Shown piece by piece: positions 1-4,927 of a stretch of 7,572 bases of DNA (position 1 is its first letter; the number at the start of each line of letters is the position of its first letter). The stretch covers positions 1 to 7,572 of the forward strand of contig JALVPN010000015.1 in NCBI GenBank assembly GCA_027031765.1, read 5' to 3'. Under the pieces are notes generated by a model. The model saw nothing but the letters and a program-made list of their open reading frames with translations. It was not told where the DNA came from and did no database searches. The translations under genes were made by a program, and so were the position numbers. Origin of the DNA: Promethearchaeota archaeon. GTDB lineage: Archaea; Asgardarchaeota; Thorarchaeia; Thorarchaeales; Thorarchaeaceae.

Positions 1-1079
1 TTCTCATACTGTTCCTTGATGACCTCTACAATCGCCGTCTCGCACACCTGGGCTATGCCAGATGAGCTGTAGCTGTAGCCGTCCTTGGGTGCTGTCATGC
101 GTGCGAGCTTCTTGAAGTCTATCCCTTCGAGCCTGTTGCCACGCAGGTGCAGCCTGAATATCTCCTCTCTGGCCTTCTCGTCCGGTGGGGGCACGTATAT
201 GATTCTGTCAATGCGTCCCGGTCGGATGAGGGCTGGGTTGAGGTCCCAGGGCTTGTTGGTCGCGCCCATGAAGACTGTCTGGACGTTCTCCGTGGAGGCG
301 ACGCCACTGAGCTCCTGGAGGAACACGCCCTCGGCCCTAGCCATGACGTCGGAACCACGCTTCTCTGCAGGCAGCAGCGTGTCAATCTCATCGACCAGCA
401 GGATTGAAGGGGCCGTTGCACGGGCACACCTAAAAACCTGTGCCACGTTCTTCTCGGTGTTGCCAACGTAGGAGTCAACGAGCTGGTCCGCCTTGGCTAT
501 GATAACGGGGAGGCCGAACTGTCCACCCGCACAGCTCACCATGTAGGTCTTCCCGCAACCTGGTGGGCCATACAGCAGGATTCCTGTCTTAGGGTCGATG
601 CCCCGTCGTTTGAACTCCTCCGGGTACTTCAGTGGGAGCTCTATTGCGAGCCTCAGCTCCTCCTTGAGCTTCTCCATTCCCGCCAGGTCGTCGAAGGTCT
701 TGTCCGGCTTGACAATCTGGAAGTTCGCAGCGCCACACTCCTCGGGCAGGTCGCTCAGGTCTCCGGACCACTCGCCTGCGGCAGCTGCGGGCTGTGCTGA
801 CGCCTTCCGTCCTCCAGCGCGTCCTGGGCGCCTCGCCTCTGCTCTGGGCGCGCCTTCCCGTTCGCGGCCACGGCTTTCGAGCCGTGCAATGTCACGTTCC
901 AGCGACTTGATGGCCTTCTCGGCCACCAGCTTGAGGCGCCCCTGAGCCCTTGCCTTGAAACGTCTGAGTGCTGCGAGGGCCCGTCTATAGTACATCAGGG
1001 CCTCCTTCACGTCGCCGCGCGCCAGGGCTGCGTCACCCTGTTTTCTCGCCTGTACTGCGGACCTGTAAGCCTCACTCAT
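1..1079 (-). CDS. vps4: MIT-domain AAA+ ATPase, Vps4/CdvC-like architecture (3' end runs off the left edge)
   Basis: Manual translation from ATG at 1079 gives 359 codons with no stop. The N-terminus is a three-helix MIT/TPR-like bundle (MSEAYRSAVQARKQGDAALARGDVKEALMYYRRALAALRRFKARAQGRLKLVAEKAIKSLERDIARLESR), followed by a Gly/Ala/Arg linker. The AAA domain has TFDDLAGMEKLKEEL, Walker A GPPGCGKT (546-569), pore loop SYVGNTEK (450-473), Walker B LLVDEID (381-401), sensor-1 GATNKPW and the second region of homology ALIRPGRIDR (204-233). A GGTGGT RBS-like motif lies upstream, 22 nt after the stop of the ESCRT-III-like gene. The AAA call is near certain; Vps4 orthology is inferred from architecture and neighbour. 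Confidence 0.9.
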   Translation of the reverse strand, partial: MSEAYRSAVQARKQGDAALARGDVKEALMYYRRALAALRRFKARAQGRLKLVAEKAIKSLERDIARLESRGREREGAPRAEARRPGRAGGRKASAQPAAAAGEWSGDLSDLPEECGAANFQIVKPDKTFDDLAGMEKLKEELRLAIELPLKYPEEFKRRGIDPKTGILLYGPPGCGKTYMVSCAGGQFGLPVIIAKADQLVDSYVGNTEKNVAQVFRCARATAPSILLVDEIDTLLPAEKRGSDVMARAEGVFLQELSGVASTENVQTVFMGATNKPWDLNPALIRPGRIDRIIYVPPPDEKAREEIFRLHLRGNRLEGIDFKKLARMTAPKDGYSYSSSGIAQVCETAIVEVIKEQYE

Positions 1080-1101
1080 TGGTACCACCCGGGACCTGGG
1101 C

Positions 1102-1731
1102 CTATTCGTCCTTGCCCTCGCCCTCTTGCAGCTTCTCCTTTGCCTTCTCGGCCTTCTCCTTGAGCTCCTCAGGGATCTGCTCGAACTCCTCTGGGAACTC
1201 GGATGCCAGCTCCGCCAGGAACTGCTCCTCCCACTCTCCCATGACCGCCTGCGTGTCGTCCTGCAGCAGCATGTCCAGCTCGCTCTCCCTGATGTCCAGC
1301 TCGGTCTCTCTCTGTTTGAGGAGGGACAGGTCGAACTGCTCCTGTTCCACCAGGTCTGCTAGCCTCTCCAGTTCCGTCACGCTTGCCTCATCGAACTCCT
1401 CAAGCGCTGCACGCACCTCTTCTGGCAACGTCAGCGTGGTGTCAATGCCACGCTCAAGGTCCCGGAGCTGCTCCTTGAAGTGCTCTCTCGCCTCCTTCAC
1501 CCGGGAGTACATCTCGGTCGCAATGCGTTCCATCCTCTGTGCTACCCGGTAGCTCCTCACAAGCCTGCGCGGCGGGATCTTGCCCTGGTTCAGGTACTGC
1601 TGGAATATCTCCCTGCGCTTCTGCGCCGCCTTGCTGGCGTGTCTCGTCTTCACACGGAACAGGTGTCTCTCTTGTTCTCTCAGAGTATCAACTTTCTTCT
1701 TCAGCTGTCTCTTTCGCCACCACTCGGACAT
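1102..1731 (-). CDS. Divergent ESCRT-III (Snf7/CdvB-like) coiled-coil protein, 209 aa
   Basis: Track ORF 1102-1788 begins at TTG; the ATG at 1731 (MSEWWRKRQLKKK) with upstream AGGGG is preferred. The protein looks all-helical. The first 80 aa have 24 K/R versus 8 D/E and the C-terminal half is strongly acidic, which is the ESCRT-III charge polarity. There is a helix-turn-helix break at YLNQGKIPP, the size is typical, and it is apparently co-transcribed with a MIT-AAA ATPase. The CDS is certain; the family is inferred. Confidence 0.72.
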   Translation of the reverse strand: MSEWWRKRQLKKKVDTLREQERHLFRVKTRHASKAAQKRREIFQQYLNQGKIPPRRLVRSYRVAQRMERIATEMYSRVKEAREHFKEQLRDLERGIDTTLTLPEEVRAALEEFDEASVTELERLADLVEQEQFDLSLLKQRETELDIRESELDMLLQDDTQAVMGEWEEQFLAELASEFPEEFEQIPEELKEKAEKAKEKLQEGEGKDE

Positions 1732-1786
1732 CTGAGATTGCCCCTTTTGTGAGCCATCACGGCTGTACCGTCCCCACCGTTGGAAC

Positions 1787-1817
1787 AAGACCTAATAATG
1801 GTTTTGCGAAAGGTCTT
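1787..1817 (-). promoter_or_regulatory. Candidate BRE/TATA promoter of the ESCRT-like operon, bracketed by a 7-bp inverted repeat
   Basis: The minus strand reads CGCAAAACC-ATTATTAG, the only AT-rich island upstream of the ATG at 1731. It is flanked by AAGACCT (1787-1793) and AGGTCTT (1811-1817). Confidence 0.5.
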
Positions 1818-2508: not shown

Positions 2509-2778
2509 GTGCAACCTTTGGTGTCATACTCTGGTTCGGGGACATCGCTTGATGACCCAATTGTGATCTCTGGGGCCCACGGGCATTTCCATGCAATTGC
2601 CTGCGAATACGCATACCTCGAAGAGGTCGTGGGGAAACGCGGCGAGGACTGGGTCCTTGAGACCCAGGCCCTGCACACTCACGAGGGCAGGTACATCGAC
2701 TCGCTACACATCCGGCTCAAAGACGGCGAGACGTGTACGTACTACTTCGACATAACCCGGTACTTTGGCATGTGGTAG
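2509..2778 (+). CDS. Small hypothetical protein (about 85-91 aa) ending in YYFDITRYFGMW
   Basis: The 3' half of track ORF 2230-2778 is protein-like (SYSGSGTSLDDPIVISGAHGHFHAIACEYAYLEEVVGKRGEDWVLETQALHTHEGRYIDSLHIRLKDGETCTYYFDITRYFGMW) and most codons end in G/C. The start is uncertain among GTG/TTG codons at 2503, 2506, 2509, 2518 and 2521. Confidence 0.8.
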   Translation: MQPLVSYSGSGTSLDDPIVISGAHGHFHAIACEYAYLEEVVGKRGEDWVLETQALHTHEGRYIDSLHIRLKDGETCTYYFDITRYFGMW

Positions 2779-4679
2779 CCAGTGGCCGCGCACGGGCCGT
2801 GCGACTGATGGAGCCGGTGCCTAGCTATCAGTGTGATACCGACTACCATAACTGTGCATGAGCCGGCCGTTACTGCCAGCGTCACCATGCCGAGTATGTG
2901 AGTCCACACCCCGTCCTGTTGCCCGCCGCCTGTGGTCGGGGACTGCTCTGGAGCGGATCCGGTCGGTACGGGTGCTGCGCGAACCACGACCACTACCCAG
3001 GCGCTCTTCGCGCCAAGTATGGAGTCGTAGACCCTCAGTGTCACAACGTGTCTTCCAACGCCTACCACCTGCAACTGCGTGGCTATGGGACTACCACTCC
3101 ACGTCCCGCTGGTCACGGCCTCCCCGTCGAGATACAGCCTGTAGGCCTCGGGATACGGGGCATAGGCCTCCCACTTGATGTGTATACTGTCGCCCTCGCT
3201 GACCGTGAGTAGACCCCTCGGACGTAGTACGACTGGTCGGCACTCCCCAAGGAAGAGCCACGTAGTCGATGCGTTCCGGTTGCCAGCTGCATCATAGAAC
3301 ACGACCGTCCAGTTGTACGTGCCGTCGGGGATGGGCCCAGCGGTCACCGTTGTAATCCCATTGTCCCATGCACCCGTCCCGGAAAGGCTCCCGTTGAGAT
3401 AGGACTCGTATGTTGCCGGGTGCTCGTCCGCAGCCTCCCACGTCGTGCTCACGGACTGACCCCGTGCGGCACGGTGGACCGGCTTGCCCCTGACCTCCGG
3501 GGGGCTGTCGTCCTGGAGCCCCATGAGCCCGGTCGTGAAGTCGGAGCCCGACTCGTCCGACCCTGACATATGTCCATCGCTCACGACAACGCGCACCCTG
3601 TATTGTGTACCGTAGGCCCACTCGGCCGGGCACCACGAGCAGCTGGTGGCCCCATCTATGACACGGTAGAGCATGTAGGTCTCGCCACCGTCGGTCGACA
3701 CGTAGACCGTAGCCGTGTGTGTAGTGTCATTCAGGTCCCTGTCGGAGTACCTCCACGATATGATTGTGGGCGCGAACCACTTTTCACCCCCGTGCGGTCT
3801 TACAAGCGTGACTAGGGGTGCAAAGTCAGTGGCCAGTGTGATGTCCCACAGCCAGCACGTAACATTGCCGGAGGGTGAAACACCAAAGGCCCCCACACAG
3901 AAGCGCCCGTTGAGCCCCTCCACATCCACACTGGCAGAGCTCCCACTCACCAGTCCAGACCTGCGCCCGTCCGCCGGCGTGACCCGCAGCGTCCACTTGC
4001 CCGGCTTGATGTGGTCTCTGCTCAGGCAGCCTATCCAGACCTCTTTACTCGGGTCGAGCCCCGTGACCACCGTGTGTTCGGGACGCGAACTGGTTGCCAG
4101 CCGGTCACCAGACAGCGAGCCGTCAGTCCGCCACGAAGACCTCTCCCCATCGCTGCCCTGCCAGACCCAGATGTCACAGTCGCCCACCGTGAAGTCCACC
4201 GTTACTGAGATGTCCAGGACCCCGACCTGTCCGTCCCTGTTGTCACACTTGAACGAGACCCACGAGAACTCCTCCGGGTTGATAGCACCCTCCCGCGGGT
4301 CGTAGCCCGGAGTCGAGATGACGATGTCTTTCTGACGGACAAGCAGCGGCCCGTCCCCAACGAGGATCTCTGTTGCAGTCACATTGAGCGCAGGGTCCCA
4401 GTCTACCCGCAGCGTGAGCAGGTCGCCCTCCACTGTGCTGCTTGAATGCACCCTCTCGGGCTCCGGGTATAGTCGCGAGCTCTTGTAGAACTGCGCCATG
4501 TCTGTCCACTCGGGTGTCCCCCAGTCGTGCGACACTCCAGCTGGTACGGGCCGTCCGGGGGCCGGGTCTCCAGGCATGTTACACGGTGCTACGCCCCTGT
4601 AGCTGACGCTGGACGGCACCCCTACCGGTACGGCCGGCCCCACCGCAAGCAGTGTGCATACAGTCAGGACGACAGCCAT
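2742..4679 (-). CDS. Type I membrane cell-surface protein with PPC-like and Ig-like domains, 645 aa
   Basis: Hydrophobic signal peptide MAVVLTVCTLLAVGPAVPVG (ATG 4679 with AGAAGGT upstream; alternative GTG at 4721). Then a PPC-like segment (ISVTVDFTVGDCDIWVWQG...PEHTVV...GKWTLRVTP), a P-x-GGE-type Ig module (PLVTLVRPHGGEKW...STDGGETY...YRVRVVVSDG), and two further Ig-like repeats (DDSPPEV...WEAADEHPATY...NG...GAW...DGTYNWTVVFYDAAGN; RPVV...WEAYAPYPEAYRLYLDG...GTW). A Pro/Thr/Gly stalk leads to a C-terminal TM helix followed by RHR. Six N-x-S/T sequons are present. Confidence 0.9.
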   Translation of the reverse strand: MAVVLTVCTLLAVGPAVPVGVPSSVSYRGVAPCNMPGDPAPGRPVPAGVSHDWGTPEWTDMAQFYKSSRLYPEPERVHSSSTVEGDLLTLRVDWDPALNVTATEILVGDGPLLVRQKDIVISTPGYDPREGAINPEEFSWVSFKCDNRDGQVGVLDISVTVDFTVGDCDIWVWQGSDGERSSWRTDGSLSGDRLATSSRPEHTVVTGLDPSKEVWIGCLSRDHIKPGKWTLRVTPADGRRSGLVSGSSASVDVEGLNGRFCVGAFGVSPSGNVTCWLWDITLATDFAPLVTLVRPHGGEKWFAPTIISWRYSDRDLNDTTHTATVYVSTDGGETYMLYRVIDGATSCSWCPAEWAYGTQYRVRVVVSDGHMSGSDESGSDFTTGLMGLQDDSPPEVRGKPVHRAARGQSVSTTWEAADEHPATYESYLNGSLSGTGAWDNGITTVTAGPIPDGTYNWTVVFYDAAGNRNASTTWLFLGECRPVVLRPRGLLTVSEGDSIHIKWEAYAPYPEAYRLYLDGEAVTSGTWSGSPIATQLQVVGVGRHVVTLRVYDSILGAKSAWVVVVVRAAPVPTGSAPEQSPTTGGGQQDGVWTHILGMVTLAVTAGSCTVMVVGITLIARHRLHQSHGPCAATGYHMPKYRVMSK

Positions 4680-4927
4680 GTGATACCTTCTATGTGTGAC
4701 CAGGACTGGGACCCTCCTCACTGTGTGGTGCGCACCCTGCAACACCGCTCCCTGTCCCCAGCATTGCTCCCATGGGCAGCACTGTCAACAGGCACACAGC
4801 AGCGTCTGTCACATCGGACCAGTGTACACGCTTGGGCGCCACGGTGTGGACCATACGACTCCAGCAGGTCACCGGAGCTACATGTTGCACGGGCATGTCT
4901 TCCTGTCAGGGTACCGCACCGCCCTAG

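Follow-up and report, generated by a model that had tools for sequence, protein, structure and literature searches.

The window analyzed here is the entire 7,572-bp contig C15 (GenBank JALVPN010000015.1) of a metagenome-assembled genome (MAG) from a Thorarchaeia-like Asgard archaeon of a hydrothermal vent (G000; 2.95 Mb, 95% complete). At its left edge, two adjacent genes encode a small helical-hairpin protein (g1) and a single-ring AAA ATPase (g2). We lean toward the view that this pair opens a conserved, rare Asgard accessory module in which hairpin proteins and a Vps4-style ATPase are joined to a dedicated subtilase and, in the subtype found in the window (type A), to a GTPase switch. The core common to the two subtypes that we recovered comprises one to three hairpin proteins (~170–220 aa), the AAA ATPase, a ~300-aa protein (g4), and an S8 subtilase (g6); type A adds a further small protein (g5) and linkage to a DO-GTPase, a GAP1-N2-like protein, and a large propeller-containing protein (g7). 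The hairpin proteins g1 and g3, each with a basic hairpin and an acidic tail, probably belong to the ESCRT-III superfamily, from whose known members they have diverged strongly.

Gene g1 (1102..1731, minus strand, ATG start) is translated into a 209-aa protein that is probably a highly divergent ESCRT-III-like subunit. An earlier note on this DNA, made from the sequence alone, described a helical protein with a basic N-half and an acidic C-half, and both properties are borne out: the net charge is +16 over residues 1–95 versus −27 over residues 96–209, and the AlphaFold2 model is all-helical (mean predicted local distance difference test [pLDDT] 81), with predicted helices at residues 2–49, 55–93, 104–178, and 188–207. 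An exhaustive phmmer search with g1 among 1.84 billion representative proteins retrieved only five homologues, all full-length, and when g1 by itself served as query in a word-seeded search of 5.8 billion proteins, it matched nothing but itself. One cassette homologue is annotated as Candidatus Thorarchaeota. The charge asymmetry is clear in four of the five homologues but not in the most distant one (P0007), and alignments reveal a conserved N-terminus of W/L-basic character, QGK-PP at the hairpin tip, and a conserved FL..FPDEWE.VPEE motif in the acidic C-half.

Downstream of g1, on the same strand, a 22-nt spacer with a Shine-Dalgarno (SD)-like GGTGG (1080..1101, minus strand) leads into g2, and the two genes are probably co-transcribed, judging from this arrangement. 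The window holds residues 1–359 of the 403-aa ATPase (3..1079, minus strand, ATG start); the remaining 44 residues are encoded past the end of the contig, and the complete gene is present on a metagenome scaffold (L095). The protein is a classical AAA ATPase with one AAA domain only (Pfam AAA, 1.4e-31), as the earlier note had read it. The AAA core (residues 167–297; 189..581, minus strand) retains its catalytic motifs, namely Walker A (GPPGCGKT), the pore loop (YVG), Walker B (ILLVDE), sensor-1 (ATN), and the RPGR arginines. It is preceded by an N-terminal helical domain of ~70 residues, TPR-like or MIT-like by alignment and weak profile matches (870..1079, minus strand). At least four independent contigs show a full-length g1 homologue with the orthologous AAA gene 4–60 nt behind it; the pairing is therefore not a chance one of open reading frames (ORFs) and is conserved in relatives.

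The cassette does not end with g2. The earlier note had pointed out that the left edge of the window would hide any downstream genes, and reading leftward uncovers g3, g4, g5, and g6. A tblastn search of G000 with cassette proteins placed these four genes at the very start of contig C118, in the same orientation as g1 and g2. Scaffold L095, which is 99.92% identical to the window, extends past the left contig end and shares 51 of its final 54 nt with the beginning of C118. The g3 start lies 16 nt after the g2 stop and is preceded by GGTGA. At this junction, the TAG stop of g2 on L095 (7752–7754) reads GAG on C118 (47–49), which would let the frame run on; the difference could reflect strain variation or a contig-end error, and three assemblies break at this spot. 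Across homologue contigs, the gene order is fixed: g1, the AAA gene (400–404 aa), g3 (~190 aa, helical), g4 (~300 aa), g5 (~100 aa), and g6 (S8 subtilase, ~550 aa). The six-gene type-A cassette occurs in a Thorarchaeota MAG (L037), in L038, and in a family relative (G384), and three fragments (L035, L039, and L040) carry the same cassette beginning.

This continuation bears directly on the claim in the earlier note that g1 and g2 form a stand-alone two-component system, a paralogous ESCRT-III/Vps4 pair acting autonomously in routine membrane remodeling such as vesicle release, repair, or protrusion shaping. The tight, conserved coupling of g1 and g2 and the presence of a canonical ESCRT locus elsewhere in the genome agree with that view. 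It is nevertheless very unlikely, given that g3 and then g4–g6 follow g2 in co-orientation in every complete copy and that the cassette is too rare, and too variable within a genus, to suit a core cell-biological function. The four further co-oriented genes on C118, together with a linked DO-GTPase/GAP1 operon, contradict the stand-alone description.

Among the downstream products, g4 of G000 is a two-domain protein of 315 aa, and neither the PDB (best Foldseek E-value 0.49) nor the ESM Atlas (TM-score ≤0.38) offers a convincing match to its AlphaFold2 model (pLDDT 79.5). The small protein g5 (~100–126 aa) matches no family, and Pfam lends no support to a likeness to the subtilisin propeptide (I9). 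The S8 subtilase g6, a predicted cytoplasmic protease, retains its Asp-His-Ser triad, and prediction gives it neither a hydrophobic nor a transmembrane segment.

Convergent to g6 on C118 lies an operon encoding a DO-GTPase, a giant GAP1-N2-like protein, and g7. The 357-aa GTPase matches Pfam DO-GTPase1 at 45.8 bits (cut-off 27), and the 1,553-aa protein encoded directly downstream has GAP1-N2 and GAP1-M matches in the right order, the former at 27.9 bits in the genome scan (cut-off 24). Conserved beside the cassette in four loci, g7 (982 aa; G000:C118:4292–7237, equivalent to L097:493–3438, minus strand) contains an FG-GAP-like propeller as well as long helical and beta-rich regions, and a CxxC...CPxCG zinc ribbon sits at its C-terminus. 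Every one of the nearest language-model neighbors of g7 is a eukaryotic BBS2/BBS7 (BBSome) cluster, but the score is just 0.77, and we take the similarity as no more than a lead. Homologues of the DO-GTPase, the GAP1-like protein, and g7 flank the cassette of G384 in a different arrangement, and L037 has the DO-GTPase (59.3 bits) and g7. The DO-GTPase and GAP1-N2 genes near the cassette are the only ones in G000 and G384; DO-GTPase1 was detected in only 7 of 400 Asgard genomes, and the sole family members with DO-GTPase and GAP1-N2 genes are the two cassette-bearing ones. In G384, three tandem DO-GTPase paralogues (324, 283, and 287 aa; G384:C160:15501–17619, L098) precede the GAP1-like gene, and the last two are 67% identical, which fits the "double GTPase" habit described for such systems. 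In the GTPase-centric systems delineated by Kaur, Burroughs, Iyer, and Aravind in 2020, a DO-GTPase and a GAP1 protein are the defining pair, and the GAP1-N2 type is associated with lineage-specific arrays (tubulin, HSP70/GrpE, kinase/phosphatase) that have been read as regulated assembly of cytoskeleton-like complexes (PMC7159879).

A second subtype of the cassette, type B, was recovered with the g4 and g1 profiles in Freyarchaeota-like contigs (G197 and L108–L111). It comprises a g1-like gene, an AAA gene bearing Vps4_C, two g3-like genes, a g4-like gene, and two S8 genes. The S8 genes are convergent in three of the contigs (L108–L110); in G197, no S8 gene lies next to g4, and contig L111 ends too soon to show one. 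The type-B g4 was found with a profile built from type A only (1.6e-5). The type-B S8 proteins match g6 at 3e-59 to 3e-63, far better than the other S8 proteins of the genome (1e-28 to 1e-36 or weaker), and the protease is therefore an orthologous, dedicated partner. The type-B ATPase of G197 has a Vps4_C domain (34 bits), a domain also recorded in the L108–L111 copies, and its top NCBIfam match is CdvC, with the N-domain included; in trees, the type-B ATPase lies inside the Vps4 clade with 100/99 support. At one type-B locus (L108:155–6286), the cassette is divergent to genes for EAP30 (ESCRT-II), a JAB peptidase, an 81-aa protein, a ThiF-type E1, and two Band_7 proteins, neighbors that may link the type-B cassette to a ubiquitin-ESCRT neighborhood.

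In neither G000 nor G197 does the cassette stand in for the canonical ESCRT machinery. The earlier note had proposed a separate, diverged locus and had called for a check of the genome for a canonical one; contig C117 of G000 carries a 409-aa Vps4 (weak MIT match, AAA, and Vps4_C) divergent to an adjoining Snf7 gene, and a second Snf7 gene is on C211. Since canonical Vps4 and Snf7 are located elsewhere in G000, the window locus is an extra one. Relatives in the same phylum typically have two Pfam-Snf7 genes per genome, with at least one in 37 of 41 sampled. That the type-B cassette might be the canonical ESCRT locus of its own lineage was rejected because G197 encodes, in addition to the cassette, a canonical Vps4 and two Snf7 proteins and because only one of three congeners carries it, the two without it including one closed genome. 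Within the family of G000, the g4 profile detected the cassette in 2 of 86 genomes (85 relatives plus G000), and single-protein searches with g1 and g2 in smaller family samples returned no orthologue. The module is thus accessory, variable even within a genus, and this patchy distribution speaks more for an accessory or conflict-type module than for a paralogue with a housekeeping role.

Whether g1 and g3 descend from ESCRT-III was assessed through structure, profiles, and language-model neighbors. The earlier note had suggested an ESCRT-III identity for g1, with which the predicted model is consistent, as it contains an N-terminal α1-α2-type hairpin (~90 residues) with further helices after it; the homology itself is undemonstrated. 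Superposed on Snf7 (5fd9), the g1 model gives a Z-score of 9.7 and a root-mean-square deviation of 1.7 Å over 78 residues. Profile-profile alignment (hhalign) with 46 Asgard Snf7 sequences is in register over 81 columns for g1 (P 8e-4) and gives P 3.5e-3 for g3; reversed controls gave P 0.09–0.11, and block shuffles reached the observed score in 1 of 100 cases for g1 and 0 of 100 for g3. Among protein-language-model neighbors of g1 and of g3, Snf7 is the only named family, and unnamed Atlas neighbors are ~200-aa clusters from Bacillota and Planctomycetota. The profile-profile match between g1 and g3 is weak (P 0.005–0.19), and paralogy of the two hairpin proteins is therefore not shown.

In favor of ESCRT-III homology, the Foldseek list for g1 is dominated by Vipp1/PspA, CHMP1B, Snf7, and Asgard ESCRT-IIIB, with Vipp1/PspA in the top rows. 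That order raises the prospect that g1 is of the PspA/Vipp1 type and not the Snf7 type, serving as a membrane-stress effector with the DO-GTPase and with an ATPase that is PspF-like or a chaperone. The long continuous helices of g1 do resemble PspA helices 2 and 3, and DO-GTPase genes have been recorded in PspA operons, those of gammaproteobacteria included (PMC11237479). We regard a PspA-type origin as highly improbable, however: neither g1 nor any other protein of G000 has a Pfam PspA_IM30 signal (best E-value 0.155, on another contig), the partner ATPase belongs to the classical AAA type, laid out like Vps4, and not to the NtrC type, and the module occurs only in Asgard archaea, to which Snf7-type proteins are native.

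In g2 and its orthologues, the N-domain is a conserved helical unit with a TPR_2 match in all six orthologues and sub-threshold Pfam MIT matches in four of the six (best E-value 0.0034). The MIT-like label given in the earlier note finds weak support among orthologues, although the window protein itself does not reach the Pfam MIT model. The N-domain profile matches the MIT structure of Sulfolobus CdvC (2w2u) weakly, at an E-value of 0.069, and aligns in register with Asgard Vps4 MIT domains by hhalign (P 0.004). At the C-terminus, the full-length 403-aa protein, completed from L095, has no Vps4_C match at E ≤0.1, and the G384 orthologue reaches 23.9 bits (cut-off 21.3). A tree constrained to unite the type-A clade with Vps4 is not rejected (p-AU 0.63). 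By its sequence, the architecture of g2 appears Vps4-like, and membership of the G000 protein in the Vps4 family is not established. A predicted complex between the g2 N-domain (residues 1–75) and the g1 tail (residues 140–209) scored 0.02, without controls, and counts neither way.

Several results weigh against an ESCRT-derived module. The structural matches of g1 are those of any long helical hairpin, with Z-scores of ~10–11 for colicin, IpaB, and SMC; generic hairpins rank first in the VIA structure comparison, and every Foldseek E-value for g1 is at least 0.1. An unrelated PAN coiled coil aligned to the same Snf7 alignment gives P 5.5e-4, as good as g1. Neither g1 nor g3 has a Pfam Snf7 or PspA match at E ≤1, nor do the g3 homologues have one; profiles of the two proteins matched no ESCRT-III chain among PDB sequences, and the modeled third helix of g1 (75 residues) exceeds the length seen in solved ESCRT-III proteins. 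As for the ATPase, the best sequence matches of the type-A AAA core are to Cdc48 D2; the split uniting type A, type B, and Vps4 receives only 60/60 support in the AAA trees, where the type-A ATPases sit on a long branch; and an exclusive clade of type-A and type-B ATPases is rejected (p-AU 0.002). The GAP1 assignment is borderline by hmmscan, with GAP1-N2 at 23.3 and GAP1-M at 21.6, just below the Pfam cut-off of 24. Finally, no transmembrane segment is predicted in any module protein, and nothing shows membrane association. Set against these points, the ESCRT-III membership of g1 agrees with its fold, charge pattern, gene context, and language-model neighbors and is plausible but unproven; we put the chances of true homology at roughly even or slightly better, a weight that derives mostly from the type-B cassette context.

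A different account of the locus is an AAA-unfoldase and subtilase system for proteolysis or defense, resembling IetAS in architecture. Here, g1 and g3 would be generic coiled-coil adaptors, substrates, or regulators unrelated to ESCRT-III, and the ATPase would thread proteins for the S8 protease, or activate it, under GTPase/GAP1 control. AAA and S8 genes occur together in every complete cassette copy of both subtypes, the subtilases of the two subtypes are orthologous, and g2 and g6 match the PADLOC IetA and IetS models. The patchy distribution and the linkage to a DO-GTPase/GAP1 conflict-type system (PMC7159879) would suit such a role, as would an ESCRT-III signal no better than that of a coiled-coil control and the Cdc48-like core of the type-A ATPase. 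The IetA match is generic, though, as the canonical Vps4 of G000 scores higher (1.3e-35 versus ~1e-30), and the NCBIfam scores fall far short of their cut-offs (IteA, 98.6 bits versus 510; IteS, 38 versus 900). IetS-type proteins are 750–850 aa, and the similarity of g6 is limited to the catalytic domain. Membership in the IetAS family was accordingly rejected as generic similarity. Two further observations sit poorly with this account: the type-B ATPase is a Vps4 paralogue, and the hairpin proteins have the size, charge polarity, and hairpin dimensions of ESCRT-III, with Snf7 as their only named language-model neighbor. Overall, we judge an IetAS-like system rather unlikely.

Returning to a module built on ESCRT-III-like hairpin proteins, its observed basis is gene order, conservation, linkage, and intact catalytic motifs, from which we infer every step of the mechanism. 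The GTPase/GAP1 pair would act as sensor and switch. A trigger such as membrane stress or an invading element would cause g1 and g3 to co-polymerize, probably at a membrane, which the conserved aromatic-basic N-terminus could engage. The ATPase, presumably working as a hexameric-type assembly, would grip the acidic C-terminal tails of g1 and g3 through its N-domain and turn the polymer over. The subtilase might be recruited to the scaffold, or released on it, to cut a signal or effector target. Membrane remodeling, proteolytic signaling, and conflict with viruses are all conceivable roles for the module. A more specific proposal, which we consider unlikely, is that a GTPase-switched, ESCRT-III-derived polymer with its own Vps4-type ATPase scaffolds or gates the subtilase, either as an anti-viral or abortive device or as a prokaryotic forerunner of ESCRT-III-scaffolded protease signaling (fungal Rim13/PalB, calpain-7); the BBSome-like g7 would then be a further trafficking-type component.

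The remainder of the window provides the immediate setting of the cassette. A putative promoter or leader (1732..1800, minus strand) was assigned by reading the sequence, with an ATTATTA at 1793–1799 and an SD-like AAAGGGG at 1741–1747. The ATTATTA is the sole AT-rich box and lies ~65 nt before the g1 ATG; the nearest upstream gene is divergent, and every related locus has g1 as the opening gene of the cassette. These features make the dedicated promoter claimed in the earlier note plausible. The ~790 bp between g1 and a divergent 86-aa gene (1732–2517) are unusually long for an archaeal intergenic region and contain no convincing ORF or Rfam match, and an Rfam scan of the window found nothing at gathering thresholds. 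The 86-aa gene (2518–2778, plus strand) is also called on L095; it is convergent to the 667-aa gene and overlaps its 3' end by 37 nt, and a longer enclosing ORF (2230–2778) has no Pfam match.

Upstream of g1, the contig encodes an Ig-like membrane protein, a RIO kinase, and an FG-GAP propeller protein; no ESCRT-I, ESCRT-II, or ubiquitin gene is present on C15, in accord with the earlier note, which had reported no ESCRT-II or ubiquitin gene upstream. The Ig-like-repeat protein directly upstream (667 aa; 2742..4745, minus strand) has weak Pfam Big_13, Ig_Rha78A_N, and ChitinaseA_N matches and transmembrane-like hydrophobic segments near both termini (residues 21–39 and 616–634). It has no counterpart in the L037, L038, and G384 loci, and a giant Ig-like protein is likewise found upstream of the g1-like gene in another family relative (G011). 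The 667-aa protein might serve the linked GTPase system as its repeat or sensor part, its membership being uncertain. The G011 locus (L032; G011:C15, 4749–6541) carries g1-like and g3-like genes and a gene for a 164-aa helical protein, without an AAA ATPase or subtilase, and is flanked by genes for a 1,787-aa Ig-like surface protein and a 1,199-aa FG-GAP/TSP3 propeller protein. At the right end of the window, a gene leaving the contig (7038–7571, plus strand) encodes a proline/threonine-rich N-terminus followed by FG-GAP/PQQ-like propeller repeats, of which neighboring copies are 92–97% identical in DNA by self-matches. A single DNA sequencing run was listed as containing window DNA, a hydrothermal vent metagenome that may be the source sample, and no RNA run was listed.

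According to current reviews, the ESCRT-III system of Asgard archaea is simple, with two subunits (IIIA and IIIB) and one Vps4 (PMC7619361), and we found no description of a module of this kind in two reviews (PMC7619361 and PMC11237479) or in literature text searches. The present data suggest that some Asgard lineages carry an additional, accessory hairpin set with its own Vps4-style ATPase, tied to a protease. The type-A module also brings in a DO-GTPase/GAP1 switch known to date chiefly from multicellular bacteria, and the cassette supplies protein families without recognizable relatives (g4, g5, and g7). If the hairpin proteins are true ESCRT-III relatives, ESCRT-type machinery would have been extended to regulated proteolysis or conflict before eukaryogenesis, and GAP1-N2 systems would gain a fourth "theme" and reach into another domain of life. 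If they are not, the locus is still an undescribed Asgard AAA-subtilase system.

Comparison with characterized systems places the module among several precedents. With PspA/Vipp1 systems it shares the helical-hairpin fold class, and a DO-GTPase (YcjX family) has precedent in psp operons; it differs in having no PspA_IM30 signal, in the absence of PspB and PspC, and in the Vps4-style ATPase that takes the place of PspF. The anti-phage system IetAS (IteAS) similarly pairs a classical AAA ATPase with an S8 subtilase, whereas the module has a much shorter protease, at least four additional conserved genes, and only generic hidden Markov model matches to that system. Likenesses to GAP1-N2-type DO-GTPase systems (PMC7159879) cover a GTPase gene followed by one for a large protein, here with borderline GAP1-N2 and GAP1-M matches, a lineage-specific linked array, and a patchy distribution. 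Those described are bacterial (actinobacteria, firmicutes, planctomycetes, and others), in contrast to the Asgard host here, and the array here consists of hairpin proteins, an AAA ATPase, and a subtilase instead of the tubulin, HSP70/GrpE, and kinase/phosphatase themes. Neither zinc ribbons nor transmembrane segments were seen in the GTPase, and the Ig-like protein upstream of g1 in the window, which is not conserved in other loci, is at most a candidate for the FNIII-repeat partner of those systems.

In layout, the module also resembles Asgard ESCRT-IIIA/IIIB with Vps4 and crenarchaeal CdvB/CdvC. Shared features are ~200-aa proteins with a basic hairpin and an acidic C-half, two to three such proteins per locus, and an adjoining gene for a single-ring AAA ATPase with a small N-terminal helical domain, the type-B ATPase falling in the Vps4 clade. 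The module departs from these systems in lacking Pfam Snf7, MIT, or (in G000) Vps4_C matches and ESCRT-I/II genes on C15. It also has fixed partners that the canonical system lacks, namely g4, the subtilase, and, in type A, the DO-GTPase, GAP1 protein, and g7. Nearly all Asgard genomes have the canonical pair (37 of 41 sampled), in contrast to the rarity and accessory nature of the cassette.

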